Assembly: GCA_963713735.1 (NCBI GenBank)
Contig: CAVQND010000024.1
Span: 77,556 to 141,555, forward strand
Length of the DNA: 64,000 nt
Direction of reading: 5' to 3'
DNA from: an uncultured bacterium
GTDB taxonomy: Bacteria > Verrucomicrobiota > Verrucomicrobiia > Limisphaerales > UBA8199
Shown here: positions 2,264 through 54,827 of the stretch, one piece after another
Layout: each line of letters starts with the position of its first letter
Position numbering within the stretch: position 1 is the first letter of the stretch
The notes under the pieces: generated by a model
Told to the model about the DNA's origin: nothing
Seen by the model: only the letters and a program-made list of their open reading frames with translations
Database searches by the model: none
Position numbers and translations under genes: made by a program

Positions 2264-2718
2264 TTAGGCGAAGAATTAGACTTGATGTGCTCAAGGAAAG
2301 GCCATTCGAGCTGTGGAACGCGTTTGTAGACCTTGTGGCGAAGGAGAAATACGCCGATTTGGACGAGGTGCAGCGCGTGGCCCACCTTTCTTTTTGGTAT
2401 GAGTCCGAAGTCCAAAACGGTGGCCATCTTCAGTATTTCGAGAACAGGGGAACCGCCCTGCTGGATGAGACCCTGGCGGCACTCCGTGCGCTCGGCGCGG
2501 ACTGCCAGCGTGGAGTTCTTGAGCAAGCCGGGCATTTCTTCCTTTCCGGATCCCGAGCGAGCATTGTGACGACCCAGCAGTACGTGGCGGCCGCTCTGGC
2601 TGGCGAGTTCGACGCCCTCGACTCGGCGTACAATGCCTGCGAGCCATCCATCCATTGGTTGCTGGAGCGCTATTTGAAGCGGTACAGAGAACACTTCATC
2701 GAAATTGCCGACGAGTGA
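2254..2718 (+). CDS. Cognate immunity protein, DMP19/DUF4375-like
   Basis: Overlaps the toxin stop by 10 nt, which suggests translational coupling. Motif SFWYESEVQNGGHLQYFEN resembles the DUF4375/DMP19 family, recalled from memory. Confidence 0.45.
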   Translation: MAVIRRRIRLDVLKERPFELWNAFVDLVAKEKYADLDEVQRVAHLSFWYESEVQNGGHLQYFENRGTALLDETLAALRALGADCQRGVLEQAGHFFLSGSRASIVTTQQYVAAALAGEFDALDSAYNACEPSIHWLLERYLKRYREHFIEIADE

Positions 2719-2726
2719 ATACGGAA

Positions 2727-3512
2727 ATGCAGCGGAAAATGGGGCCGCACCTCAACATTCAGCAGTTGACGCTAAAGAGAGCTTGTTTCCGGAAACGCGG
2801 GACCCGAGTGAGAGCTTCCTCCCGGAAAAAGCACAGCACGACTGCATCCGAGTTGACGAGTCAATTACAACAGCACCCGCCGTATCAGGCTCGGATGCAG
2901 CAGGCCCAGGCGAGCCGCCAGGAATCTAGTCGAAGGCACAGGGTTGCTGCTGCGCCCGTCATTAAAGACCTCGAGAGGGCGGGCTTCCCCGTAGACTCCC
3001 TGGATCAGCTTCGGCGAACTGGAAGCCCTTACGAAGCGGCGGTCCCCGTGCTACTGAAGTGGCTTCCCTTGGTCGCTGACATGGACGTCAAAGATTCTAT
3101 CGTTCGGGCGCTCTCAGTCCCGTGGGCCAGACCAACGGCGGCGCTTCCGCTCATTGCTGAGTTCCGAGATGCGTCTGGGCCGGCGTCGGGCCTCAAATGG
3201 ACAATTGGAAACGCGTTGGCGGTCGTTGCCGACGACAGCGTATTCGAGGAAATCTCGGAGATGGCGCGTGAGAAGCGGCATGGCAAGGCTCGTGAAATGT
3301 TGGCCGTGGCATTAGCGAACATGAAGGACCCACGAGCGGTAGAGCTGCTTATCGAGTTGCTGGGCGATGACGAGGTTGCTGGTCATGCCTTGATCGCGCT
3401 TGCCAAGTTGAGAGCTCGGAAAGCTCGGCGCCACGTTCAACGTCTGCTCAGCCATTCCAAAGTCTGGGTCCGTAGGGAGGCCAAAAAAACGCTGGCAAAG
3501 CTCCAGCCATGA
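2727..3512 (+). CDS. HEAT/PBS-lyase-like repeat protein. Possibly an additional immunity or orphan module.
   Basis: Repeated alpha-helical motifs (VRALSVPWARP, VWVRREAKKTLAKL). The ORF 2655.. overlaps the immunity gene, so the start was taken at the internal Met. Confidence 0.45.
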   Translation: MQRKMGPHLNIQQLTLKRACFRKRGTRVRASSRKKHSTTASELTSQLQQHPPYQARMQQAQASRQESSRRHRVAAAPVIKDLERAGFPVDSLDQLRRTGSPYEAAVPVLLKWLPLVADMDVKDSIVRALSVPWARPTAALPLIAEFRDASGPASGLKWTIGNALAVVADDSVFEEISEMAREKRHGKAREMLAVALANMKDPRAVELLIELLGDDEVAGHALIALAKLRARKARRHVQRLLSHSKVWVRREAKKTLAKLQP

Positions 3513-3661
3513 TCCGCTCTGGGGTTGGTGTTGGAGTAGGTCGGGTGGTAGGAACGCTATATTCTGTCGAAATCCCTGGCCGATTGGGACCGGCGACGTG
3601 CTTTGAAACGGAGCGTATCGCATTGCTTGTCAACCGCGCTGATTTGGGATAGGGATAGGGC

Positions 3662-5546
3662 GTGCCGATGAAGCGAATGGCGTGCCTGCTCATGGTGTTC
3701 TGCGGCTGCTTGGCCTCGGCCAGCCTGGCGCGGAGCTCGCTGGACCGGTTGGACTACACCGGCCTGCTCGACCGCTGGGGCCACGTGCTGGACGGCTACG
3801 GCTACACCGGCGACCCGCTCGGCCTGCGCACCAACCTCACGCGCAACCTGGGGCTTACGACCAATTCCTTGGGCGTCGGCTATGATTCGATTGGCCAGTT
3901 GGTCTCCTGGTCGGGCAAAGAAACCGGCGGGGCGCTCCGGCAAAACGAGCAGTTTGGCTTCGGCTACGACCGGGCGCACAACCTCAACTCGCGGACCAAC
4001 GGGGCGCTCATCCAGACCTTCAACACGGATGTGGTGAACCAACTGACCAACATCACCCGAAGCGGCGCCTTGACGGTGAGCGGCGTCACGACCGTGCCGG
4101 CCACCAACGTCACGGTGAACGGCCAGGCGGCGCAGACCTACGGGGACTTCACCTTCGCAAGCCAGAACAACACGCTGACCAACGGGCAGAACGGCTTCAC
4201 CATCGTGGCCCGGAACAGCTACGGCCTCGGCACGACGAACTTCGTCAGCGTGAACCTGCCATCCAGCGTGGCCTTGCAGTATGACTTGAACGGCAACCTG
4301 ACCAACGACGGGACGCGCTCGTTTGCTTATGACGCGGAGGACCGCCTGGTGACCAACTGGGTGGCCGGGGCCTGGAAGAGCGAGTTTGTCTATGACGGCC
4401 TGGGCCGGCGGCGAATCGAGCGGGATTATTCCTGGAACGCCGGCACATGGCAGCTCACCAACGAAACCCATTGCATCTATGACGGCTGGCTGGTCGTCCA
4501 GGAGCGGAACAGCAACAACGTCGTCCAGGTGACCTACACGCGGGGCCTGGACCTCTCGGGCACGCTCCAGGTACGCGGGCGGCATCGGCGGTTTGCTGGC
4601 GCGAACGGACACGAGCGGCTCGGCCTACTACCATTCGGACGGCGCGGGAAATGTCACGGGGCTCATCGACGCCAACGAGAACATGGCGGCGCGTTATCTC
4701 TACGGCCCCTTTGGCAAACTCACCGCCCAATGGGGACCGATGGCCGGCGCGAATGCCATGCAGTTCTCCTCGATCCCCCGCCACGCCAATTCGGGCATGA
4801 GCTTATATCTTTTCCGGGCATACGACCCAGCCTTGCAACGCTGGACTTCAAGGGACCCGATTGGCGAATGGGGCGGGATCAATCTGTACGGTTTCGTTCG
4901 TAACAACCCGCTAAGCTACGTTGATCCTTACGGACTGGACTTCTGGGATTGGTTGGACTATGTGCCAGGATTGGGTCCTTTTGCGCGACGGTGGCAGGGA
5001 AAGCAGGCGCTGCGATCCATGCTGCAGGCCCGCGGCTACGACAGCCTGCAGGAGTTTGAGTTGCAACATGGCAATGGCGCGAACGTCACCAGTGGCGACC
5101 CCGACGCAGTTGCGGCCGCGGCTGATCTGGCCAGTGGATCGACCGAGTTGTATTTGCTAGCGGCTACCAGCCGACTACCCGCTGGAGGCTGTCGAGTTCG
5201 ACCTTATGGCGGCCCCGGCGGGGGACACCATGTCCTAATGAAAAGCGCGTTTCGCGGCACTCCGGGTTATGACGTGAATGCCGCGTTGGCAATACCGAAT
5301 GAGGAATTGGCACGACTTGGTATGAGCCACTCTGTGCTCTCCGGGGCTCAGCAGATCTTGTATCGACAGTTCGAAGAGAGTGGCGCCACGTTAACCTGGG
5401 AGGCGATGCAATTGATCGAGACGGCGGCCTTGGTCAGAGGTGGCATGAATAGCGAGACCGCCGCAGCCACCGTTCGCGAGGCCATCCAAGCCTTGAGAAA
5501 CGCGGGAGTGGCGCAGCCAACAAGAATACCATGGGGAGGTGAGTGA
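3662..5546 (+). CDS. RHS/YD-repeat polymorphic toxin (copy 2) with a different C-terminal tip (GHH-type HNH-like). Frameshifted at about 4570.
   Basis: Signal peptide MKRMACLLMVFCGCLASASLA. The 5' ~1.1 kb is near-identical to copy 1. A single extra g (ccaggtacgc versus ccagtacgc) splits the ORFs 3662..4903 and 4593..5546. Core motif is RAYDPALQRWTSRDPIGEWGGINLYGFVRNNPLSYVDPYGL. Tip contains PYGGPGGGHHVLMKSAF. Confidence 0.65.
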
Positions 5547-8498: not shown

Positions 8499-8860
8499 AT
8501 CGTTGGGCTAGTGACGCCTGGAGGCGTATTGTCCACGCGCCGGGAGCGAAGTCAAATAGGGAATAATCGCCGGGTCCGGTTAAAACTGTCGGTCGGCTCA
8601 CGGCGACTCTCTGCCCCGAAGGGGCTTCTGAGAATAGCCCGGCGTTTCAACGCCGGGTGAGCGAACCGAAAGAGTAGTTCCGTCCCGCAGGGACGGCTGA
8701 GAGCAAAGAGTATTCTCGGTCGTCCCTTCGGGACGAGAGTCCCTTTTCTGCCCTCCCCGGCATTCAAACGCCGGGCTATTGTCAGATGTCCCTCCGGGAC
8801 AAAACCTCCGGCACTTCCAGTGATCTCGACCTTTCTACCCGAGAGGAGTTGACCGCCGTG

Positions 8861-9628
8861 TTAATGCCAGGTTTCGGGGTGAGGCTGGTGGTCGTTATTC
8901 CAGCGCAAGCGGGGGCTAAAGGCCGCTTTCATCCAGTTGGTTTGCTTTCCGAATTCGATGTGCGCGTCGCAGAACATGACGTTGCCGCCTCTGCTATGGC
9001 GGGCAGCGATGTAATCATAGGGATCGTCGAGGGAGCCGGTAATGTCTCCGTCATTTTGCACCAGTCCGTGAGCAATCTCGGGCAAATCGCCGATGGCGAT
9101 CATATCGGCGGGCGCCAGCACGCGATTCTCGAGCAGGGGTGGATTTCCGCGGCCGCCGCTCAATCCGAGAATGGGACTTGTCGGGGTGACCTCGACGTTG
9201 TCGCGAGTGCCTAAGGCATTGTAGCCATAGCAGGGATTCCAATCCAACAGGTTGGTCCATTGGAGGACAGGCCTCCTGGCGCCACAAGTGAACAGGTCGC
9301 GATTACCCCCGGCAAACAGCAGGAGAGTGCCGTCCCAATTCGTTGAATTCTTCGCGCCCAAGGGCGTGGCGCTTCCCTGCCAGAGCGGGTATTTCTGATA
9401 TTGGACCAGGTAAAGGCTAAGTCCCACCCCGATCTGATGAAGATTGCTCTTGCAGGCGACGCACAGGGCTGCGGCCTTGGCCCGGCCGAGCACGGGCAGC
9501 AGCAGGGCCGCCAGGATTGCAATGATCGCAATAACCACCAACAGCTCGATTAAAGTGAACCCGGCGCGGTCCGACCGCCTTTGCTCACCGGTCTGGGGCA
9601 CGGGTGGAACGTGGGATGGCGAGTTCAT
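8861..9628 (-). CDS. Prepilin-type N-terminal cleavage/methylation domain protein with a DUF1559 (H-X9-DG-like) domain
   Basis: [24 protein letters not shown]-terminal [13 protein letters not shown]. Confidence 0.75.
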
Positions 9629-38080: not shown

Positions 38081-39602
38081 ACCAACTCCAACTGGCGGTT
38101 GCGTTCGGGTTCGGGCTTTGCGAACTTCAGGAACCTTTTGATGCGGCCCGGTTGCGCCCAGTTGCATGTGCCTTCGACATTGAGTGATTTAAGGTACCGC
38201 TCAATGTGCGAAGAGCATAGTTGTTTGAGAAGGGACTCGGCTTCCTGGGCCGTAGAGCATGGGATGAACGAGTGCATCGCTTGATTCGGCTGCCAGGGTT
38301 TGCCTTCGACTGCCGAGAAAACCTGCGGAGCGAAGGTGTGCTTGCCGTAGGCTTCCCATACGACTTTATGCGGCGCGAAACTGTATCTGCCCACACCTAA
38401 GCACGCCCACCAGATGCCTCGCTTTATCCATGCGCCGAGCAGGCTGCCTTTCCGATTCTCCAGTGCCTGCCTGTGCAGATGAAGGTAAGAGCGCAAGGTG
38501 GGGTGCTGGTTCAGTTCTGCTTCGGTGAGGGGATTCCCTGTTTCGGGTGTTGTAGGGAAGCAGAATAAACCGCTGGGGCTTGGAAGCAGCGTTTCGGAAG
38601 CATTCCTTTGTCAGAAGCGGGAAGACAAACTGCCTTGGCAGGTGGTCCGGGTATTGGTCGAAAATAAAGGCATGGTTCGCCCCGCATGTGTTGACGCCCT
38701 GCCTGGGCTTCTGGTCGGCCCTGACGGTAATCGGAGCCGCTGCTCTAATATCGTCGAGATCGGCACGTTCGCCGGAGACTGACAGTGGAGCAGTGGCTTC
38801 GCCAATTGGGGCGGCGTACTGGCTTGCCCAGGATTCCCCTGTGAGGCTTTTGTATGGTATGGGGAATGCGTTCTGTTTGTCCCGATGGAATAAGGCGGCC
38901 CCAATCTCGAGTGAGGATGTCCGGAAAGATTTTCTGTAGGCGGAAATCCCAGATTTGACAGACCCGAAACTCGGAATTGCGGAGCCGGTATTTGCGGAAG
39001 CCGGCGTGCGCCCCGTCGTTGAAAAATAGAGAAAGCGGCAGGAAGAAGGCCGCCTCACTATTCCGCTCCAGGTTTTCGTTGAGGACCACGGCAATCACGA
39101 GCGCCGCCAGGTCAACTCTGGAACTGCCCAGAAGCACGGCCTGCATGTCCGCGACCAAACCGTAGTCCAAAAAGTGTGGCTTGGTTGCCTCCTTGTAGCC
39201 GGGTGGAAGATCGTTGAAGTTAACCCATGGCGGGTTCCCTATCAGAAAGTCGAATCTGCGCTTGGGGTTCGACAGTATTATATCGGCATGGATTAGGTTG
39301 CGTTTTGGGAAGTCCCTCCGGTACTTCAGGCGGAAACCAGCCTCGAACTCCCGGAGGAACTTTGGTTGCTGCTCCATTAAGTGTAGCCGAGACAGCATCT
39401 CGTCATCAACTTCAATGCCAATGGTCATGGCGGTGTCAACCAAGGCGTAGGCAAATGCTCCATTGCCGGCAGTGGGGTCGCATACCGTCGCGCCCTCAGC
39501 CCACCGGCGAACGACGTTGGCTTCGCCGACCAGCCATTTCGCCCAGCGGAGCGGCGTAAAAACGGCCCCGATTGGTTTAGCCGCCAAAGGTGAATCTTGC
39601 AT
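38077..39602 (-). CDS. N6-adenine DNA methyltransferase (gamma-class, TaqI-like) of a type II R-M system. Frameshifted.
   Basis: Motif I VCDPTAGNGAF precedes motif IV DFLIGNPPWV. The C-terminal target-recognition part lies in other frames (ORFs 38366..39094 and 38077..38496). Confidence 0.7.
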
Positions 39603-45261: not shown

Positions 45262-45477
45262 ATGAAGAACGAATTCACCGCCGAAATTCACCGCGAGGGC
45301 AAGTGGTTCGTGGCGTTCTGTCCGGAGGTGCCCGAGGCCAACGGCCAGGGGCGGACCAAGGAGGAATGTCTGCGGAGCTTGGCCGCCGCCATCGAGTTGG
45401 TCTTTGAAGAGCGGCGTGCGGCCTTCCGGCAACAGCGCCACGCGCAGGCCGAGGAAGCCATCGTCTCCATCGGATGA
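45262..45477 (+). CDS. hicB: HicB-family antitoxin
   Basis: MKNEFTAEIHREGKWFVAFCPEVPEANGQGRTKEECLRSLAAAIELVFEE. UPF0150 signature. Confidence 0.8.
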   Translation: MKNEFTAEIHREGKWFVAFCPEVPEANGQGRTKEECLRSLAAAIELVFEERRAAFRQQRHAQAEEAIVSIG

Positions 45478-45662
45478 AGCGGCGCGAACTGCTTCGGCAT
45501 CTCGAGGCGCACGGGTGCAGATTGAGGCGTGAAGGCGCCGGACACTCGCTCTACCACAATCCGGCCACGCACCAAATGCAGGCCGTTCCGCGCCACAACG
45601 AAGTGCCCGACATACTCGCCCGGAGAATCTGCCGCTGCCTTTCCATTCCCGACCCGAAGTGA
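45474..45662 (+). CDS. hicA: HicA mRNA-interferase toxin
   Basis: MKRRELLRHLEAHGCRLRREGAGHSLYHNPATHQMQAVPRHNEVPDILARRICRCL. 4-nt overlap with hicB. Confidence 0.8.
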   Translation: MKRRELLRHLEAHGCRLRREGAGHSLYHNPATHQMQAVPRHNEVPDILARRICRCLSIPDPK

Positions 45663-45699
45663 GCGGCTCCGGCACTGGTCCATCCAGGCTGGCACCTTG

Positions 45700-45942
45700 A
45701 CAAGCGCTGTCAATGTCGGGGAGTATGGGCGGCGATGCAAGCGCCGCCGGACAGCAAAGCAGAGGAATCGCCCCACGCTCATGTCTGGCCTGCGCCGGAG
45801 GCTGGAGACCGCATAACGACTTACCATTGGCGGTGGTTATCCTGGCAACTTGCGGTTGGTTTTTCGACTGCATGGGACAGCGGATTTTCGTGATTTCCCG
45901 CGAACCTGCGCTCAGGGAACTGCTCGGCGCGACCACTACCAA
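45700..45942 (+). repeat. Diverged (~90%) second copy of the promoter-proximal region and first ~45 codons of the MFS gene at 50164. Left boundary of the accessory island.
   Basis: Alignable base-for-base with 50124..50362 (ccttgacaa...gggagtatgggcggcgatgcaagcgccgccggacagcaaag...cagggaactgctcggcgcgac). Encodes AVVILATCGWFFDCMGQRIFVISREPALRELLGAT. Confidence 0.7.
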
Positions 45943-46632
45943 CGGCGCGGAGAGGGGGTGCTTCAGGGCTATCGCAACGGCTACGAGGACAAAGAGGTCC
46001 AGACCGCCGAAGGCCCGCTGCATCTGAAAATGCCGCAAGTGCGCGACACGATTGAAGCCTTTGAGAGCGTGTGGCTCCGAGCGCTGGTTCGGCGAAGTGA
46101 TAAGCTGGCGGCCCTGATCCCGCAGCTCTACGTCAAGGGACTGTCAACGCGGGACATCGAGGCCGCCCTCACCGACACGCTGGAGGTGGAGGGGGTAAGC
46201 AAGAGCACGGTCAGCACGTTGTGCGGGCAATTAAAGAAGGACTTCGAGCAGTGGCAGAACCGGGATCTGACCGAACACAAGATTCTGTATCTGTTTTGCG
46301 ATGGTATTTACACGCGGCTGCGTCCGGAGGATGAGCGGGCTGCGGCGGTGCTGTGTGCCTACCGGATCCAGGAGGACGGCAGGAAAGTGCTCCTGCATCT
46401 GGCGGTGGGCGACAAGGAGAGCACGGTCTGCTGGAAGAGCTTCTTCCAGGACATGAAACAACGGGGACTGGCCAAACCGCTCCTGGCCATCATCGACGGG
46501 AACAGCGGGCTGCGCAGAGCAGTCAGGGAGTGCTTTCCTGGCTCGCGGGTCCAGCGGTGTCAGGTGCATCGGATGCGCAACATCCCATGCGAGCTGGCGT
46601 GGCGTCAGGGTGACTCCGTCGGCGAACGGTGA
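45943..46632 (+). pseudogene. IS256-family (mutator-type) transposase fragment, truncated at both ends
   Basis: YRNGYEDKEV, YVKGLSTRDIEAAL, LFCDGIYTRLR, CWKSFFQDMKQRGL, LAIIDGNSGLRRAVRECFPGSRVQRCQVHRMRNI. Only about 230 of roughly 400 aa are present. Confidence 0.8.
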
Positions 46633-46893: not shown

Positions 46894-47933
46894 ATGAAGA
46901 CGCGATCCTTAAAACTCGTTCGATTCCTTTCCCCGCTGTGCCTGGCCGTTTGGGCGGCAGCGCCACAGGCCGGTGCCCAGACACCGGCGCAACTCGCCAT
47001 TCAGACGTATGCGGGGCTGACCATCACGGGTGCGGTCGGGACGGTTTACGAAATTCAATGCGTCACGGACCTCGGCCAGACGAACGACGCGAGCGCCTGG
47101 CGTTGCCTGGAGTTTCTGCAACCGCCTGCCAGTCCCTATCTGTGGGCCGACAAGTCCGCTCCGGCCACGGGGCGGCGGTTTTACCGGGCGGTGCAGACTG
47201 GAGGGCCGACGAACATGGTCTTCATTCCGCCGGGGACGTTTCGGATGGGCAGCCCGACGAACGAGGTGGACCGGTATGGCGATGAGGGACCGCAGACGGC
47301 GGTGACGATCAGCCGGGGTTTTTGGATGGGCAAGTATTTGGTGACCCAAGGGGACTACCTGGCGTTGATGGGCAGCAATCCGAGCTATTTCAACACAAAC
47401 AACGGGTACAGCTTGGACTTGACTCGTCCGGTGGAGAGTGTGAGTTGGTTTGATGCCTCGAATTACTGTGCGGCCCTCACGGGGCAGGAACGGGCGGCGG
47501 GGCGGATAGCGGCCAACAGCGTGTATCGGCTGCCGACGGAGGCGGAATGGGAGTATGCATGCCGGGCGTGGACTTCGACGCGGTTCAGCTATGGGGATGA
47601 CCCCGGCTACACCAACTTGACGCAGACTACGCGTGGTACTCTGACAACAGCGGTGGAACGACGCATCCGGTGGGGCAGAAGTTGCCCAACCCGTGGGGCT
47701 TGTATGACATGCACGGGAATGTGTTGGAGTGGTGCCAGGACTGGTATGACGTTTATGCTGGCGGGATTGCCCTTGACCCCCAGGGGCCTGCCACGGGCTC
47801 GCGCCGCGTGATTCGCAGCGGCTTCTGGGGCCGCATCGCCGGGTGCTGCCGGTCTGCGGACCGCGACAACGACTACCCGGACGGCAGGCTCTTCAGCATC
47901 GGTTTCCGGGTTGTCCTGGCCCCAGGTCAGTGA
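46894..47933 (+). CDS. DGR target protein. Secreted FGE-sulfatase/C-type-lectin-fold protein with a C-terminal variable region. One frameshift at about 47620.
   Basis: Signal peptide MKTRSLKLVRFLSPLCLAVWAAAPQAGA. YAWYSDNSGGTTHPVGQKLPNPWGLYDMHGNVLEWC. C-terminus [41 protein letters not shown]. Confidence 0.8.
47804..47925 (+). repeat. DGR variable region (VR) at the 3' end of the target gene
   Basis: 122 bp colinear with 49028..49149. About 25 of 28 mismatches sit at template adenines. Confidence 0.8.
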
Positions 47934-48092
47934 GCTCAAGAGCCAGCGCGGAGCAGTCGAGGCGGAGCGAGGGACGAGCGAAGCCTGACTGCGGAGCGGG
48001 TGTGAGGATGTCAAGCGGGTAGGAATAAGAAAAGAAAAGCCCCGCGCAGCGGTCGCCAAATTTTTCGAGAACCGACGCCCCTGGCAATCTGA

Positions 48093-49020
48093 ATGCAACT
48101 GAAGGTCTTTGTTCTGCCGATTAAGAATCTCGGGGCTGCGGAGGCCGAGATGAATGGGTTCTTGCGTGGGCACCGGGTGCTGGCGGTGAAGAAGGAATTT
48201 GTGCCGGATGGGGAAAACTCCTTCTGGAGCTTTTGCGTGGAGTACCTGGATGGCGGCGGAGGGGGCGGACTGGTGCCGGGCGGCAAGCTGCCCAAGGTGG
48301 ACTACAAAGAGGTGCTCAAGCCGGAGGAGTTCGAGGTGTTCAGCCGGTTGCGCGACTGGCGCAAGGCCGTGGCGGAGAAGGAAGGGGTCCCGGTCTATGC
48401 TTCACCATCCACGATCCCAAGGAGCGAGTGATCTGCGCCGCCCACTTCCGGGAGCGGGTGATGCATCACGCGCTGATGAACCTCTGCGAGCCGGTGCTGG
48501 CCTTGTTTGAGCAGGTCTTGGCCAGCTACCAGACCGCGCCCGGGCGCGGCTTACCCATCGGCAATCTTACTTCCCAGCATTTTGCCAATTTCTACCTGGC
48601 CCCACTGGACCGGTTCATCAAGGAGCACCTGCGCCGCTGGGCCTGCGTGCGCTACATGGATGACTTCGTGGTGTGGGGTGAGAGCGGCGCCGACCTGCGC
48701 GGCGTGTGGCGGGAGGTGGAGGCCTTCCTCGCGGCGAAGTTGCGTCTGGTCCTGAAGCCAAACGTCGCCCTGAACCGGACGGCCTTCGGAATGGATTTTC
48801 TCGGGTATCGCGTCTTTCCGCAGGAGCTGCGGCTGGCCCGGCGGAGCAAGCTGCGCTTTGCCCGCAAGTTCCGCCGGTATGAATGCGAGTGGGTGGCGGG
48901 GCGGTGGACGGAGCTGCGCTTGCAGCAGCGGATGCAGGCGCTGGTGGCGTTCACCTTGCCCGCTCGCAGCCGACCCTGGCGGCGGCACGTGCTCCATCAA
49001 TTTGGGGTGGTGGCCAACGG
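48093..49020 (+). CDS. DGR reverse transcriptase. Frameshift at about 48420. The 3' end runs into the template repeat.
   Basis: [30 protein letters not shown] (motifs 1/2). [17 protein letters not shown] (the DGR-diagnostic IGxxxSQ). [10 protein letters not shown] (YMDD). MDFLGYRVF. No maturase or endonuclease domains. About 310 aa. Confidence 0.85.
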
Positions 49021-49027
49021 GCTCGAA

Positions 49028-49149
49028 CCGCGTGATTCGCGGCGGCAACTGGAACAACAACGCCAGGAACTGCCGGTCAGCGAACCGCAACAACAACAAC
49101 CCGGACAACAGGAACAACAACATCGGTTTCCGGGTTGTCCTCGCCCCAG
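49028..49149 (+). repeat. DGR template repeat (TR), AAC-rich
   Basis: cgcgtgattcgcggcggcaactggaacaacaacgccaggaactgccggtcagcgaaccgcaacaacaacaacccggacaacaggaacaacaacatcggtttccgggttgtcct. Encodes [39 protein letters not shown] in the VR frame. Confidence 0.8.
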
Positions 49150-49398
49150 CTCATCCGGAGCGTTGGATGACGGCCCGGCTGACCCGGCCCCCATCCTGTC
49201 CCCCGAATACGGTGTTCCGGGGCAAACCACGGTGGAACGAGGCCCGGTGTAAGTAGCGAAGCGGAGTCTCCGCGAAAGCTCCGCGCCTTTGCTGGCCCAA
49301 GGCGGGTAGACGCATCAACCATCACCTGCCTCCCCAGGACCTTTTTACAGGAACGGTTGGACTTGACGGATGCGCCCCTCTGGAACCATAACGGCAGC

Positions 49399-49806
49399 TC
49401 AGGCAGTGATGGCTTTTAACAATTGCGCGGGTGTAATGACGCCTGCGCCAAAGGGTTTCTGAAGGACCAACAGATCTTTGTCAAAGGTGACGAGAAAGCG
49501 AGCCTTGGCGGCCAGCGCGGCCGAAAGATAGGGGTCGTCCGCCGCATCCCGGCAGCGCTGTTTCCCCAACGGCATCGGCTCCACCAGGGTCACCCGCTCC
49601 AAATACCACGTCAGCCGCGCCGTGGCATTGTGCCTCGGCTGCTTTTGGCGAATCAACTCGGCGGCAACCTCCCTGGTCTCCTCCAATGTTTCGGTCAACC
49701 CGAAGGCGAAGAGCTGCCGCCTCGCGATCTTGACCAGGCACAGGTACGCCTCGCCGTTCCAGCAAGCGCCAGACGCCACCACGTTGGCATCAAGCACCAC
49801 GCGCAT
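49399..49806 (-). CDS. PIN-domain toxin (VapC-like, PIN_3 family)
   Basis: MRVVLDANVVASG, DDPYLSAALAAKARFLVTFDKDL. Confidence 0.8.
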   Translation of the reverse strand: MRVVLDANVVASGACWNGEAYLCLVKIARRQLFAFGLTETLEETREVAAELIRQKQPRHNATARLTWYLERVTLVEPMPLGKQRCRDAADDPYLSAALAAKARFLVTFDKDLLVLQKPFGAGVITPAQLLKAITA

Positions 49807-50053
49807 GTCTGGACTTTCTCACCCGCCGTTGAATCGTCAGAACCTCCTTAATCTCCACTCCCGTGGGTCCGGGTTCAGCCCCTGCGCCGGCGGACTCCAG
49901 GAGGGCCAGGTCGGCTTCGATCTCCCGCCGAATCTCCTCCCGTACCAACTGACGGAAAAACTCACTCACGTTGCCGTACTGTTGCTCGACCCGTTGCCTC
50001 ACAAACTCCGCCATGGTCGAGGGGAGAGAGATATTCATCAACTCCATCTTCAT
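49790..50053 (-). CDS. Ribbon-helix-helix antitoxin (ParD/CopG-like) paired with the PIN toxin
   Basis: MNISLPSTMAEFVRQRVEQQYGNVSEFFRQLVREE. 17-nt overlap with the PIN gene. Confidence 0.65.
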   Translation of the reverse strand: MKMELMNISLPSTMAEFVRQRVEQQYGNVSEFFRQLVREEIRREIEADLALLESAGAGAEPGPTGVEIKEVLTIQRRVRKSRHARGA

Positions 50054-50163
50054 CGGGCCGAGCTTACATCCAATGGCATCAAATGTAAAGCCAGGAAACT
50101 GTCAACTGGACAGCCGGCTGGCTCCTTGACAACGGGTGGGGATGTTGGGGAGTATGGGCGGCG

Positions 50164-51873
50164 ATGCAAGCGCCGCCGGACAGCAAAGGATCGGAATGGC
50201 CCCACGCTCAGGTTTCGCCTGCGGCAGGCGTTGGAAACAGCATCACAACTTACCATTGGCTGGTGGTTATCCTGGCAACGTGCGGTTGGCTCTTCGACTG
50301 CATGGGACAACGGATTTTCGTGATCTCCCGCGAACCGGCGCTCAGGGAACTGCTCGGCGCGACGGTGTCGGATGACACGGTCCGGGGCTGGGGCGGCCTG
50401 GCGACTTCGATGATGATGGTCGGCTGGGCGACCGGAGGCATCCTTTTTGGGCTGATGAGCGATCGCTGGGGACGGGTCAAGGCGATGGTCAGCACGCTGC
50501 TGGCCTACACCCTGTGCTCGGGGCTGGCGGGTTTCGCCCGCAACGGGACGGAGTTCCTGGTTTATCGCTTTTTGTTTGGCCTGGGCGTGGGCGGGATGTT
50601 CGGCTCGGCGACGACACTGGTGGCGGAGAGCGTGCCCCAGCGGGCCCGCACGCTGGCGCTGGGGCTGATGCAATCCCTTTCGGCAGGCGGGACCATGCTC
50701 GGCTCGGCCTTGAGCCTGAAGATCACGCCCGGACAGGAGAATTTCTGGGGCCATTTCAGCGGGTGGCAGGTCTTATGTTTTGCGGGGGTATGCCCGGCCA
50801 TCCTGGCGGCGCCGATGGGCCTGCTCCTCAAGGAACCTGATGCCTGGAACAAGGCCAAGGCCCTGGCCGCCATCCAAGGCCGGAGCAAAGCGGTCGGGTC
50901 AATGGCAGACCTGTTCACACACCCGCGCTGGCGCAGGGGCATGCTGGTCGGCGTTTGCCTGGGCGTGGCCGGCATGGTCGGCTTGTGGGGCATCGCGTTT
51001 TTCTCGCCGGAGCTGATCACGACCGCCTTGAAAAATCGCCCGTTGCAGACCGCAGACATCGTAAGGCCGGCCGAGGTTTGCGCCGCTCTGACCGCGCCCG
51101 CCAACCCTGCCCTGGCGCGCCTCAAGGCAAGACTGTCCCCGGAGGCAATCGGCCAATTCGCGGCCCTCCCGGGCGCGGGGGAGATTCCGGTCGGCACGGT
51201 CGAGGTCTTGCGGCAGGAGTTGAATCGAGCCATCCAGGGCGGCCAACTTTACGATGCCGAGGCCTTCAAGTCGCTCGCCCTCAGGAAGGCGACCCGGAAC
51301 CTGGTCAAGCTGGCCGAGAAGACCCATGCGCGAGAGGACCGGATATTCCTGAATCGGCAATTAGTGGAACAGCTCTTTCCCAGCGCCATTCTCGAGCTGC
51401 AAAAGACCATTGACGGGATGCGGAGCGGAGGCACGATGTTGCAGGACTTTGGGGCCGTGCTGGGGATGCTCACCTTCACGTTTGCAGCGTCCTATTTCAA
51501 CCGGCGCGCAGCCTTTCTGGGGGCTTTTCTGCTCTGCCTGGGGGCGGTGGCCTTCGTCTTTTATTCGCTCAAGTCGGCCACCGATATCTACTGGATGCTG
51601 CCGCTGATGGGCTTTGGCACCCTCTCGGTCTTCGCCGGCTACTCGATCTACTTCCCGGAACTGTTTCCGACCCGGCTGCGGGGGACGGGTGTCGGCTTGT
51701 GTTACAACACGGTACGCTACCTGACCGCGCCCTTTCCGTTCCTGCTGGGCTGGCTGAGCACCTTGATGCCCTTCCGCACGGTCGCCGTGATGATGTGCTC
51801 GATTTACCTCCTGGGCATCGTCGCCCTGTATTGGGCCCCCGAGACCAAAGGACAACCGCTGCCGGAGGACTGA
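50164..51873 (+). CDS. MFS transporter (about 14 TM segments with a central hydrophilic insert)
   Basis: HWLVVILATCGWLFDCMGQRIFVISREPALRELLGAT (TM1). GLMSDRWGRVKAM MFS motif. The true start may be a non-ATG codon downstream of 50164. Confidence 0.8.
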   Translation: MQAPPDSKGSEWPHAQVSPAAGVGNSITTYHWLVVILATCGWLFDCMGQRIFVISREPALRELLGATVSDDTVRGWGGLATSMMMVGWATGGILFGLMSDRWGRVKAMVSTLLAYTLCSGLAGFARNGTEFLVYRFLFGLGVGGMFGSATTLVAESVPQRARTLALGLMQSLSAGGTMLGSALSLKITPGQENFWGHFSGWQVLCFAGVCPAILAAPMGLLLKEPDAWNKAKALAAIQGRSKAVGSMADLFTHPRWRRGMLVGVCLGVAGMVGLWGIAFFSPELITTALKNRPLQTADIVRPAEVCAALTAPANPALARLKARLSPEAIGQFAALPGAGEIPVGTVEVLRQELNRAIQGGQLYDAEAFKSLALRKATRNLVKLAEKTHAREDRIFLNRQLVEQLFPSAILELQKTIDGMRSGGTMLQDFGAVLGMLTFTFAASYFNRRAAFLGAFLLCLGAVAFVFYSLKSATDIYWMLPLMGFGTLSVFAGYSIYFPELFPTRLRGTGVGLCYNTVRYLTAPFPFLLGWLSTLMPFRTVAVMMCSIYLLGIVALYWAPETKGQPLPED

Positions 51874-51950
51874 GGTCGTCGCAGCCTTCGTCGCAGCCTT
51901 TGTCGAAAACCGCAACCGAAGGAAAACCGTCGCCGGAGGACCGACGCCCC

Positions 51951-52026
51951 AATCCTAATCCTAATCCTAATCCTAATCCTAATCCTAATCCTAATCCTAA
52001 TCCTAATCCTAATCCTAATCCTAATC
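51951..52026. repeat. (AATCCT/CCTAAT) x about 12.7 perfect hexanucleotide microsatellite
   Basis: aatcctaatcctaatcct... 76 bp without interruption. Lies between convergent genes. Confidence 0.9.
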
Positions 52027-52139: not shown

Positions 52140-53927
52140 TCACGGCCAGCGCAGGCGATAGAACCGGGTCTGATAATTCGTCCACCAGGGATCGCTGAAG
52201 TAGGACGAGCCGCTGCTGAGGGTGTTCGTGGCCAGTGGAGACCAAGTGGGATTGGCCAGATTAGTCGTGGCCTCGACCACGACGACAATACTAGGTGTGC
52301 CGGTGATGTTGAAGCCAAACCGGTTCGCCCGGACACCGAAGCTGGCATCCCTGGTCTGCACCTGGGGGGTCCACAGCACGGTCGGGCGACCGCCAAACGT
52401 CGGGCCCCAGCCCGTGGTCCCAGGCAAGTAATAGATGGTCGCATTGTTGTCGCCTGAGAACACAGAGTTGCCATTGAGACTGGGGGCGTTACCCTTGAAA
52501 TAGGCCCCTGTCAGGTTGGGGCAGAGCCAGAACGCCTGGTCGAAGATGTTGGTGACGCTGTTGGGGATCGTTACCGTGATCAGGTGTTCGTCGCCTGCGA
52601 ACGCATCGTCCCCGATGTTGCTGACGCTATTAGGGATGCTGTAGGAGCTTCCGGCTTCGCCTCCTGGGTATTGAATGAGCAAGGTCCGGTTCTTGTCGAA
52701 CAACGCCCCATCCACACTGCTATAGACGGAATTGAGTGCATCCACCGTGATCGCTGTCAGGCTGTGGCAGCGACAGAACGCCATGTCCCCGATGCTGGTA
52801 ACATTGCTGGGGATCGTGACGCTGGCCAGGCCGCAGCCATAGAACGCAAAGTCCCCAATGCTGGTGACGTTGTTGGGGATCGTGACGCTGGTCAGGCTGC
52901 TGAGGTAGAACGCATGGTCGAAGATGTTGGTGACGCTGCTGGGGATCGTGTAACCTCCAACTTTACCTGGCGGGTATTGAATGAGCGCGGTCTGGCTCTT
53001 GTCGAACAAGACCCCATCCAGACTGCTATAGATGGGATTGAGGGCATCCACCGTGATGGCCGTCACGCTCCTGCAGCCACAGAACGCATCGTTCCCGATG
53101 CCAGTGACACTTTTGGGGATTGTGATTTGGGTCAGGCTGGTGCAGCCATAGAACGCCCATTCCCCGATGCTGGTGACGCTGTTGGGGATCGTGACGCTGG
53201 TTAGGCCGGTGCAAAACGAGAACGCATCGTTCCCGATGCTGGTGACGCTGCTGGGTATCGTGATGCTGGTCAGGCCGGTGCAGTCATAGAACGCCTCCGT
53301 CCCGATGTTGGTGACGCTGTTGGGGATCGCGTAGGAGGTTCCGGCTTTGCGTTGCGGGTATCGGATGAGGCTGGTCTGGCTTTCATTGAACAAAACCCCA
53401 TTCACACTGGCATAAGTGGAATTGAGGGGATCCACTGTAATGGCTGTCAGGCTCGTGCAGCCGGAGAACGCCTCGTTCCCGATCCTGGTGACACTTTTGG
53501 GTATCGTGATTTTGGTCAGGCTGGCGCAGTCATAGAATGCCCCTTCCCCGATGCTGGTGACGCTGCTGGGGATCGTGACGCTGGTTAGGCTGGTGCAGTA
53601 ATAAAACGCCCAGTCCCCCATGCTGGTGACGCTTTTGGGGATCGTCACGCTGGTCAGGCTGGTGCAGCTTGAGAACGCGTACTGTCCGATGCTGGTGACC
53701 GGCAGGCCATTGACGGCGCTCGGAATGGTCAGCGCGCCGCCAGGACCAGTGTATCCCGTGATGGTGATCGCGCCGTTATTGGTCGTGCAACTGAATTGGG
53801 CTTGCACGACGCCAGTCGGCGCCAACAGCAAGAGCACCGGCAGCAGCCTCGTGGCGCAGGCAGTTGTTAAGCGCCCGGCCATCGTCTTCGGGCAAGTCGT
53901 TCTCTCACTGAGGGTTTGGGTTTTCAT
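52140..53927 (-). CDS. Secreted BspA-type leucine-rich-repeat (LRR_5) protein
   Basis: Signal peptide LLPVLLLLAPTGVVQA. At least 15 repeats of about 23 aa (IPSSVTSIGxxAFxxCTSLTSVTIP). Confidence 0.75.
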   Translation of the reverse strand: MKTQTLSERTTCPKTMAGRLTTACATRLLPVLLLLAPTGVVQAQFSCTTNNGAITITGYTGPGGALTIPSAVNGLPVTSIGQYAFSSCTSLTSVTIPKSVTSMGDWAFYYCTSLTSVTIPSSVTSIGEGAFYDCASLTKITIPKSVTRIGNEAFSGCTSLTAITVDPLNSTYASVNGVLFNESQTSLIRYPQRKAGTSYAIPNSVTNIGTEAFYDCTGLTSITIPSSVTSIGNDAFSFCTGLTSVTIPNSVTSIGEWAFYGCTSLTQITIPKSVTGIGNDAFCGCRSVTAITVDALNPIYSSLDGVLFDKSQTALIQYPPGKVGGYTIPSSVTNIFDHAFYLSSLTSVTIPNNVTSIGDFAFYGCGLASVTIPSNVTSIGDMAFCRCHSLTAITVDALNSVYSSVDGALFDKNRTLLIQYPGGEAGSSYSIPNSVSNIGDDAFAGDEHLITVTIPNSVTNIFDQAFWLCPNLTGAYFKGNAPSLNGNSVFSGDNNATIYYLPGTTGWGPTFGGRPTVLWTPQVQTRDASFGVRANRFGFNITGTPSIVVVVEATTNLANPTWSPLATNTLSSGSSYFSDPWWTNYQTRFYRLRWP

Positions 53928-54827
53928 GGTTTTCGACCTAGCGGAGTTGATAGCTGATGGGAGCTGCTCTTTGACGCGCCGCATCATTGCGGCTGCGCGG
54001 GTGAAAGAGAATTGGTTCCTGGTCGCGCTCATGTTGAAAGACGCTCCTGGCCGAGGAGCGCACCCATTTGGCCGAACGCTTGAGCAGTCGCCACATGCCC
54101 GCCCAAAACCGATCTTGTCGTCGCCACTGCCAATTCATCAGCAACTGGCTCCCCACCAGACCGTCGTCATTATTGAACGGTTTGTCAGCATTCCTGATGC
54201 CGGAGTTCAAAGGTTAGAGAAAGTTGTTGGGGGATAACGGATTAGCGAAACTCTCCTCCGGTGGAAACCCATCATGCTGTGCCAGAATGGCAGCCTCAGT
54301 GCCACTGTGGCATACGTGCCTCAGCGCGTCAGATCGTCGCCCAGTTAATCAGATTGTATTATTTTATTGACGGCGGCGGTTGTTGGGGGAGCGATGGAGT
54401 CGCGGCTGCGAGACAGCGGGGCCGCTGAGTTCATCAAGGCGGTGGAGCATGGCTGGTGCCTCTCCCCGAGGGAGAGGGGCGCTGCCAGGGCCGTCCCTCA
54501 ATCTGGATTCCGCTGAAAAACCCCCTGTTTTTGAAGATGAGCAAAGATGCATGAAAAGTGTCGGGAATTCTTACGCGCTAATTTGGTCTGTACGCGATTT
54601 GAATGATCAAGGGATACATCGGAGATGGTCTTTTTCACTGTCTCTTTTTGATCAGAGGGGTTTTTCAGCAGAATCAATCTGATTAACTGACCCCTGCTAT
54701 GGGGTGGACTGGCAAGGCTGCCGCCGCATCAGGCCCCAGCCGTGCCAATCGCCTTTCCATCATCGGTCTTAAACTCGCGAATAATTTTTGCTTGATTTTT
54801 AGGACTGCTTGGGCTGCACTCCAGCCC

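Follow-up and report, generated by a model that had tools for sequence, protein, structure and literature searches.

The prototype of the diversity-generating retroelements (DGRs) is that of Bordetella phage BPP-1, whose cassette is ordered mtd-avd-TR-brt, where TR denotes the template repeat and brt encodes the reverse transcriptase (RT). Directly 3′ of this TR lies a 140-nucleotide (nt) Spacer that base-pairs with the 3′ end of the TR and provides the adenosine used for priming; the conservation of TR-flanking RNA has been surveyed for Avd-type DGRs only (bioRxiv 10.1101/2023.10.23.563531). Wu et al. 2018 catalogued further layouts, among them avd-RT-TR orders and an Architecture C of HRDC-containing DGRs, which comprised 14 of 372 elements and was represented by a Treponema element (PMC5758913). 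Here we analyze a locus in a stretch of 64,000 nt from contig CAVQND010000024.1 (hereafter the window, to whose positions all coordinates refer unless a related locus is named). A sequence-only reading of this DNA had identified a DGR and implied a working cassette. The identification holds, given an adenine-specific pair of TR and variable repeat (VR), an RT of the DGR clade, a target protein of the FGE/C-type-lectin type and matching GC-rich 3′ ends. The working cassette does not, as residues 1-64 and 96-160 of the RT are missing, only part of the accessory gene is left and the target gene is frameshifted. We conclude that the locus is very probably a chromosomal HRDC-type DGR of a Verrucomicrobiota-like bacterium, which was active in the past and has recently been inactivated.

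Template and variable repeats

The repeat pair comprises the following features, the last of which resembles an initiation of mutagenic homing (IMH) element:

47793..47929, + strand: VR, the final 137 nt of the coding region of the target (repeat finder and alignment)
49017..49153, + strand: TR, with 39 adenines and 15 AAC codons in the target frame
47901..47929, + strand: GC-rich, IMH-like VR 3′ end, GGTTTCCGGGTTGTCCTGGCCCCAGGTCA

A repeat finder independently called the two segments (47793-47929 and 49017-49153) as a direct repeat of 137 nt with 80% identity and an offset of 1224. Their ungapped alignment contains 27 mismatches, of which 24 fall at a TR adenine, two at a TR C and one at a TR G (Fisher exact p = 1.3e-13, odds ratio 51, with 39 A in the 137-nt TR). 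Read in the target frame, 14 of the 15 AAC codons of the TR are altered in the VR, and an alignment of seven full-length homologues shows that the hypervariable positions of the target proteins coincide exactly with the AAC codons of the TR. The repeat had been reported before as 122 nt and proved to be 15 nt longer. The adenine bias described with it persists on re-alignment (24 of 27), while the count given, 25 of 28 differences at TR adenines, has to be corrected to 22 of 24 within the 122-nt span. The 3′ terminal 25-mers of that span (47901-47925 in the VR, 49125-49149 in the TR) differ at one base, as claimed (47918 G / 49142 C). A scan of both strands of the 64-kb window that ignored the A positions returned no further VR for this TR.

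Two copies of a sequence could also arise by ordinary duplication or gene conversion of the C-terminus of an FGE-domain gene and diverge by ordinary mutation. Consistent with such an origin, Pfam still recognizes the end of an FGE-sulfatase domain when the TR is translated in the target frame (30.1 bits). Against it, 24 of 27 differences are concentrated on the 39 adenines of one copy (p = 1e-13), and the same TR/VR bias is found in 15 related loci, always beside an RT of the DGR clade. The adenine bias and the family comparison refute this explanation, to which we assign practically no probability.

We compared the pair with the TR/VR pairs of the 15 relatives with both repeats in the fetched DNA, which contain 16-36 mismatches each. 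The number of mismatches at positions other than TR adenines is 1-3 per pair in loci with intact genes, with the exception of locus L012 (8). It rises to 11-12, plus gaps, in L021 and L023, both of which carry RT frameshifts, and amounts to 2 in L047, where the RT is split between two frames. The locus in the window has 3. One of these, 47926 G / 49150 C, is family-wide, and this G/C difference is kept in about 15 TR/VR pairs; the other two, at VR 47817 and TR 49142, are peculiar to this locus. Throughout the family, the VR ends in ...CCCCAGGTCA and the TR in ...CCCCAGCTCA. The 47926/49150 difference is, as far as the alignments indicate, a good candidate for the distinction between IMH and IMH*. 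The TR as a whole is nearly identical across related loci (97% to L005 and 96% to L021).

The intact cassette in relatives and the lesions of the locus

We scanned one genome per species with P0001, a full-length relative of the RT, which yielded 80 loci. Those in Verrucomicrobiota show 62-86% identity, and those in Planctomycetota, Bacteroidota, Acidobacteriota, Desulfobacterota, Lentisphaerota and others show 37-58%. In the 24 closest loci, an FGE-type target is followed by a gene of ~150 amino acids (aa) with an HRDC domain and then by the RT, wherever the contig is long enough. Further away in sequence, 58 of 62 loci carry a full-length HRDC gene immediately before the RT, and an FGE gene is close by in most of the 62; full-length HRDC genes are likewise present in nearly all close loci. 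The TR is located at the 3′ end of the RT open reading frame (ORF), overlapping it, in all close loci. The intact form thus carries, on one strand, a secreted FGE target whose C-terminus holds the VR, a protein of ~150 aa with an HRDC domain at its end, an RT of ~340-370 aa, the TR and an RNA of ~150 nt, and the same gene order occurs in more than 80 loci from at least six phyla. A TR downstream of and overlapping the RT, which the sequence-only reading regarded as unusual, is the rule in these loci. The second peculiarity it listed, the lack of an Avd-like ORF between target and RT, resulted from missing a truncated ORF of HRDC rather than Avd type at 48093-48400. Both features are clade traits, since more than 80 loci share the layout, which is Architecture C of Wu et al. 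2018 (PMC5758913). One Planctomycetia metagenome-assembled genome (MAG; CAVRDP01...) contains at least 5 copies of this DGR type (L034, L036, L039 and L084).

Measured against this form, the cassette in the window consists of remnants, joined or interrupted at three sites:

46894..47933, + strand: target pseudogene with signal peptide, N-terminal domain, FGE-sulfatase (C-type-lectin-fold) domain and C-terminal VR
47620..47627, + strand: frameshift site of the target, ACG CA GAC, with 2 extra nt at 47623-47624
48093..48400, + strand: HRDC-type accessory remnant, residues 1-104 of about 150, with the HRDC domain almost wholly deleted
48400..48401, + strand: junction of deletion 1, an out-of-frame join with 1-nt microhomology and 338-341 nt (~339) lost
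48401..49030, + strand: RT remnant, with motif 4, motif 5 and thumb kept and the N-terminal extension, motif 1 and motif A block gone
48494..48500, + strand: junction of deletion 2, with the 7-nt microhomology GTGCTGG and 195 nt (65 codons, in frame) lost

All lesions were mapped at the nucleotide level against five or more intact loci (the DNA of L001, L004 and L005 among them). The RT remnant retains PIGNLTSQ (motif 4; 48554-48577) and YMDD (motif 5; 48653-48664), the two DGR RT motifs noted earlier, and has no in-frame start; its open frame extends across the TR and closes at a stop codon (49250-49252). We recovered 6502 homologues by searching proteins with the remnant; the top-ranking ones are full-length metagenome proteins of 340-371 aa, with P0001 being 93% identical. 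Compared with eight full-length relatives, the remnant is short of about 63 residues at its N-terminus and of a further 65 in one internal block. In agreement, the remnant matches only profile positions 110-184 of 205 of Pfam RVT_1 (27.2 bits, under the cut-off of 29.6), vs positions 8-185 and 58.5 bits for P0001. Deletion 1, which we mapped by blastn against L001, L003, L005, L021 and L023 together with a multiple alignment and the junction sequences, removed accessory residues ~105-154, the short stretch in which the two genes overlap, and residues 1-64 of the RT. Deletion 2 removed RT residues 96-160, including FLKMDVRKYFDS (motif A), which we take to bear one of the catalytic aspartates of the RT. 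Judged by its predicted protein, the remnant is not a catalytically competent RT, as motif A and the N-terminus are deleted.

The affiliation of this RT can still be recognized. The remnant scores 86.9 bits against BPP-1 bRT vs 36.8 bits against a group II maturase, and its alignment to PDB entry 8ub7, the sequence of which is 100% identical to brt of Bordetella phage BPP-1, is split into bRT residues 66-116 and 174-284, skipping the segment lost in deletion 2. For full-length P0001, the corresponding scores are 158 bits to 8ub7 and 63 bits to the best group II intron RT. RVT_1 is the only Pfam domain detected in the window remnant and in the full-length relative, and an Rfam search of the window yielded no group II intron RNA and no retron RNA. 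Other RT families were examined with hidden Markov models, using the full-length relative, and all scored far under their cut-offs: the group II intron RT/maturase model TIGR04416 (104 bits vs 300), the retron model NF038233 (47.7 vs 235) and the Drt defence models (≤46.6 vs ≥200). NCBIfam has no DGR-specific RT model, so that this check works by exclusion only. On these sequence comparisons, the RT belongs to the DGR clade.

Upstream of the RT, the accessory ORF (112 aa, 48093-48431) leaves its frame into RT sequence and ends at a stop at 48431. In tblastn, residues 1-104 are covered. The C-terminus of the accessory protein matches the HRDC domain of RecQ, and the remnant reaches only profile positions 2-24 of 68 of Pfam HRDC (21.7 bits, under the cut-off of 23.8), vs positions 2-68 and 73.4 bits for the intact accessory protein of L005. 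The N-terminal ~80 residues (48093-48330 in the window, 4540-4780 in L005) have no Pfam match; this part, ending in ...FCVEYLDG, is conserved across phyla.

The third lesion lies in the target gene. At the frameshift site, close homologues read ...GYTNLT-DYAWY..., as determined by three-frame translation, comparison with seven full-length homologues and a tblastn frame switch at 47619/47622; the target of L005 was too divergent for this mapping, and closer protein homologues were used. The shift of +2 nt, which is not located within a homopolymer, leads to a stop at 47809-47811, inside the VR, and splits the Pfam FGE-sulfatase match across two frames, the first (46894-47811) covering profile positions 3-142 and the second (47628-47933) 159-254. 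After repair, the target comprises 345 aa and aligns end to end with homologues of 340-376 aa at 74-83% identity. Its best solved relative is TvpA, the DGR variable protein of Treponema denticola (2y3c, E = 5e-36). The proposed FGE/C-type-lectin-fold target is thereby borne out: the FGE-sulfatase domain ends in the VR, and the match to TvpA together with the FGE Pfam domain settles the fold class.

We also considered whether the cassette might be intact in the organism, with the deletions and the frameshift arising from assembly or sequencing. The frameshift involves only 2 nt, the relatives all come from MAGs, and the window's own truncated target ORF of 305 aa (P0206) is on record from a single 149-kb NCBI/ENA contig; neither a near-identical strain nor an independent assembly of this strain was found in the collections searched. 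Against an artefact stand three separate lesions within 1 kb, next to a transposase that is truncated too. The joins show microhomologies of 1 nt and 7 nt, as real deletions commonly do and much shorter than what would confuse an assembler, the +2 insertion is outside a homopolymer, and other family members carry different deletions and frameshifts. On the grounds of the three separate lesions, the short microhomologies and the similar decay in relatives, an artefact is unlikely, and we leave it a very small chance.

Damage to this DGR type is also seen elsewhere. L021, the closest syntenic relative (a Verrucomicrobiota MAG), carries different lesions, namely frameshifts in both the RT and the HRDC gene; L023 and L047 have RT frameshifts as well. 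Further public proteins carry independent deletions: in P0039, accessory residues 1-38 are fused to the RT at ...DDFVVW, and P0011 shows an internal RT deletion. Decay of this DGR type seems to be common, or its MAG assemblies error-prone. Both frameshift sites of L021 lie inside segments that are deleted in the window, and a first lesion may therefore be shared between the two loci.

To estimate when the cassette decayed, we determined the ratio of nonsynonymous to synonymous divergence (dN/dS), which is 0.14 for the RT remnant (vs intact L004) and 0.08-0.12 for the HRDC remnant (vs three relatives). These low values imply that purifying selection was acting while most of the divergence built up. 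Combined with the small number of non-adenine mismatches between VR and TR, they suggest that the lesions arose recently, as measured against a synonymous divergence of about 0.28.

Conserved elements after the repeats and the probable past activity of the locus

Beyond the genes, two noncoding elements are conserved, one after the TR and one after the VR:

49146..49299, + strand: conserved structured RNA, beginning in the last 8 nt of the TR (covariation)
49146-49153 with 49180-49187, + strand: helix formed by the TR 3′ end, CCAGCTCA pairing with the invariant CUGACCCGG
49155-49164 with 49169-49178, + strand: hairpin (RNAalifold)
49198-49207 with 49215-49223, + strand: hairpin (RNAalifold)
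49239-49247 with 49281-49289, + strand: long-range helix enclosing a small hairpin (49256-49273)
47949..47999, + strand: conserved element 20 nt downstream of the VR (sequence conservation and modest pair support)

A multiple alignment shows that the 150 nt 3′ of the TR are conserved among loci. For 23 loci, RNAalifold predicts 39 pairs, 25 of which show compensatory double changes. Across the alignment, 92% of cells are paired, vs 31-52% after shifting the partners by 1-3 columns, with a covariation score of 0.48 vs ≤0.16 for the shifted partners; none of 500 shuffles reaches the observed values. From the sequences of the 23 loci we built a covariance model (R1), which finds the RNA immediately 3′ of the RT in 38 further loci outside the training set, belonging to other phyla and including low-GC Bacteroidota. 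In this wider set, 38 of the 39 pairs show double changes, in an alignment that was itself fitted to the model, and the helix of the TR end (CCAGCTCA/CUGACCCGG) gains compensatory changes. Rfam contains no match at the DGR, either at the gathering threshold or at E ≤ 1. In the multi-copy MAG CAVRDP01..., the copies of the RNA score alike (41.8 bits), and two of them are convergent on one contig (L039, 7128-7280 on the + strand and 8737-8889 on the − strand).

The copy in the window has 5 broken pairs, vs 1-6 in relatives, and a unique C-C at 49244/49284, where C-G is kept in 22 of 23 loci. As the number of broken pairs lies within the range of the relatives, it is uninformative with regard to decay. 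By analogy with the Bordetella Spacer, the RNA may represent a cis element of HRDC-type DGRs that spans phyla and has so far gone undescribed, a functional counterpart of the Spacer, which primes and binds protein, suited to an HRDC partner in place of Avd. We put this forward tentatively, rating it slightly short of probable. If it is correct, the RNA would place the TR 3′ end for self-primed cDNA synthesis. Given that the published survey was confined to Avd-type elements (bioRxiv 10.1101/2023.10.23.563531), the RNA would also provide a handle on how Avd-independent DGRs prime reverse transcription.

The element after the VR is found 10-45 nt downstream of every VR examined (17/17). Its stem is formed by GCAGTC-AGGC (47953-47963) and GCCTGACTGC (47983-47992) around the conserved GGAGCGAGGGACGAGCGAA (GGAGCGAGGGACGAGCG). 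RNAalifold predicts 9 pairs, 7 with some compensatory change, and conservation is chiefly at the sequence level. The element may be a candidate hairpin or cruciform for target recognition, comparable to the target-site hairpin of BPP-1 (PMC3240598).

Following the Bordetella phage paradigm, the intact system would have operated in several steps. TR-containing RNA would fold with its downstream element, and the RT and the accessory protein would make cDNA primed from the TR RNA, misincorporating opposite template adenines. The cDNA would then replace the VR, with the GC-rich IMH and the conserved element downstream of it defining the target. Three independent lesions, namely the deletion of ~339 nt, the microhomology deletion of 195 nt and the +2 frameshift of the target, have disabled this system, so that the VR would represent a frozen record of the last homing events. 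A scan for promoters and terminators between 46600 and 49500 yielded hits at chance level.

Alternatively, TR-RNA and VR of the locus could still be in use, if an intact DGR paralogue at another place in the genome provided RT and HRDC protein in trans. This idea draws on the 96-97% identity of the TR to those of relatives, a largely intact post-TR RNA and only 3 mismatches at non-adenine positions of the VR/TR pair, a number like that of intact loci; moreover, multi-copy genomes of this DGR type exist, such as the Planctomycetia MAG mentioned above. However, we found no second RT, HRDC gene or FGE target in the 64-kb window, which is the part of the genome covered by the search. With the target frameshifted before the VR, diversification would proceed without a protein product, and the changes restricted to the window at TR 49142, VR 47817 and the RNA pair 49244/49284 suggest drift. 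Supply in trans is therefore improbable, with a small chance of being correct.

Several observations weigh against a past DGR that was recently inactivated, which remains our preferred reading. The lesions rest on one assembly, and an exact 22-mer search did not find the deletion-1 junction in JGI metagenomes. The near-pristine TR, the post-TR RNA and the identity of VR and TR outside adenines also fit an RT supplied in trans, and the 5 broken pairs of the RNA give no clear signal of decay.

Genomic surroundings and comparison with known systems

The sequence-only reading placed the cassette in an island rich in mobile elements. We do find one IS256 remnant, two toxin-antitoxin pairs and a methylase fragment; the neighbourhood otherwise consists of ordinary chromosomal genes, and the description was overstated. 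The features in question, with a further large neighbour, are:

38745-39602, − strand: Eco57I-like methylase fragment, a weak match to the Eco57I restriction-modification methylase domain
45262-45662, + strand: HicA toxin (45474-45662) with a probable HicB upstream, just upstream of the block described below
45928..46632, + strand: IS256/Mutator-family transposase remnant (Pfam Transposase_mut positions 51-266 of 379)
49399-50053, − strand: PIN/RHH-like toxin pair, with PIN_3 at 49399-49806 and an overlapping 87-aa ORF weakly matching DUF6290
52140-54032, − strand: BspA-type leucine-rich-repeat protein of 630 aa (LRR_5, E = 6e-96)

The transposase remnant is 94% identical to positions 3005-3676 of L021, where the gene is longer (2333-4096) and occupies the same position upstream of the DGR. 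The same transposase in the same place indicates that the insertion sequence and the DGR were already linked before the lineages of this locus and L021 separated. An MFS transporter gene has its 5′ end (about 57 codons, with the region upstream) present twice, at 45675-45933 and 50105-50363, with about 88% identity. Of these copies, the left one is a remnant with a frameshift, and the right one is the beginning of an intact gene of 569 aa. The two copies bracket a block containing the IS256 remnant, the DGR and the PIN/RHH-like pair. Other neighbours encode a LysR regulator, MFS transporters, a creatininase and a DHH-family protein. Just after the MFS gene and within a long minus-strand ORF, a hexanucleotide repeat (~51900-52020) translates to (PN)n in one direction and to (GL)n in the opposite one. 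The sole Rfam match in the window is an Acido-Lenti-1 RNA (RF01687; 8612-8657, − strand; 39.9 bits vs a gathering threshold of 37).

With regard to surveys of DGRs, the locus should not be counted as an active hypervariation system. Scans that accept an adenine-biased TR/VR pair together with RT motifs will call dead cassettes active, and gene integrity needs comparison with full-length relatives. The DGR class is already known, and the locus itself is an ordinary member that is no longer functional; the sole element that may be new is the post-TR RNA of the clade.

Compared with the BPP-1 DGR, the locus shows the same adenine-specific differences between TR and VR, a VR at the C-terminus of a C-type-lectin-fold protein, a GC-rich, IMH-like VR end and an RT that belongs to the clade of bRT, its best solved match, and carries IGxxxSQ and YMDD. 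Directly 3′ of the TR is a structured RNA of ~150 nt whose first helix takes in the 3′ end of the TR, similar to the 140-nt Spacer with its TR:Sp duplex (bioRxiv 10.1101/2023.10.23.563531), and a priming role of this RNA at the locus would follow by analogy only. The two systems differ in the accessory protein (HRDC-type vs Avd), in the order of the cassette (target-HRDC-RT-TR vs target-avd-TR-RT), in the target (FGE-type vs Mtd) and in their location (chromosomal vs phage), and the copy described here is inactivated.

Architecture B2 (avd-RT-TR) likewise has its TR downstream of the RT (PMC5758913). It differs in carrying Avd, whereas our locus has an HRDC-type accessory gene and a TR overlapping the RT ORF. 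Architecture C, represented by the DGR of Treponema denticola with target TvpA, shares with it the HRDC gene in the cassette, the closest solved relative of the target and the location on a bacterial chromosome; this likeness is drawn from the description by Wu et al. and the TvpA match. In contrast to the 14 HRDC-containing DGRs of Wu et al., which were scattered over 11 layouts (PMC5758913), the HRDC-type DGRs described here form a large uniform clade, in which more than 80 loci from Verrucomicrobiota, Planctomycetota, Bacteroidota, Acidobacteriota and others share one layout.

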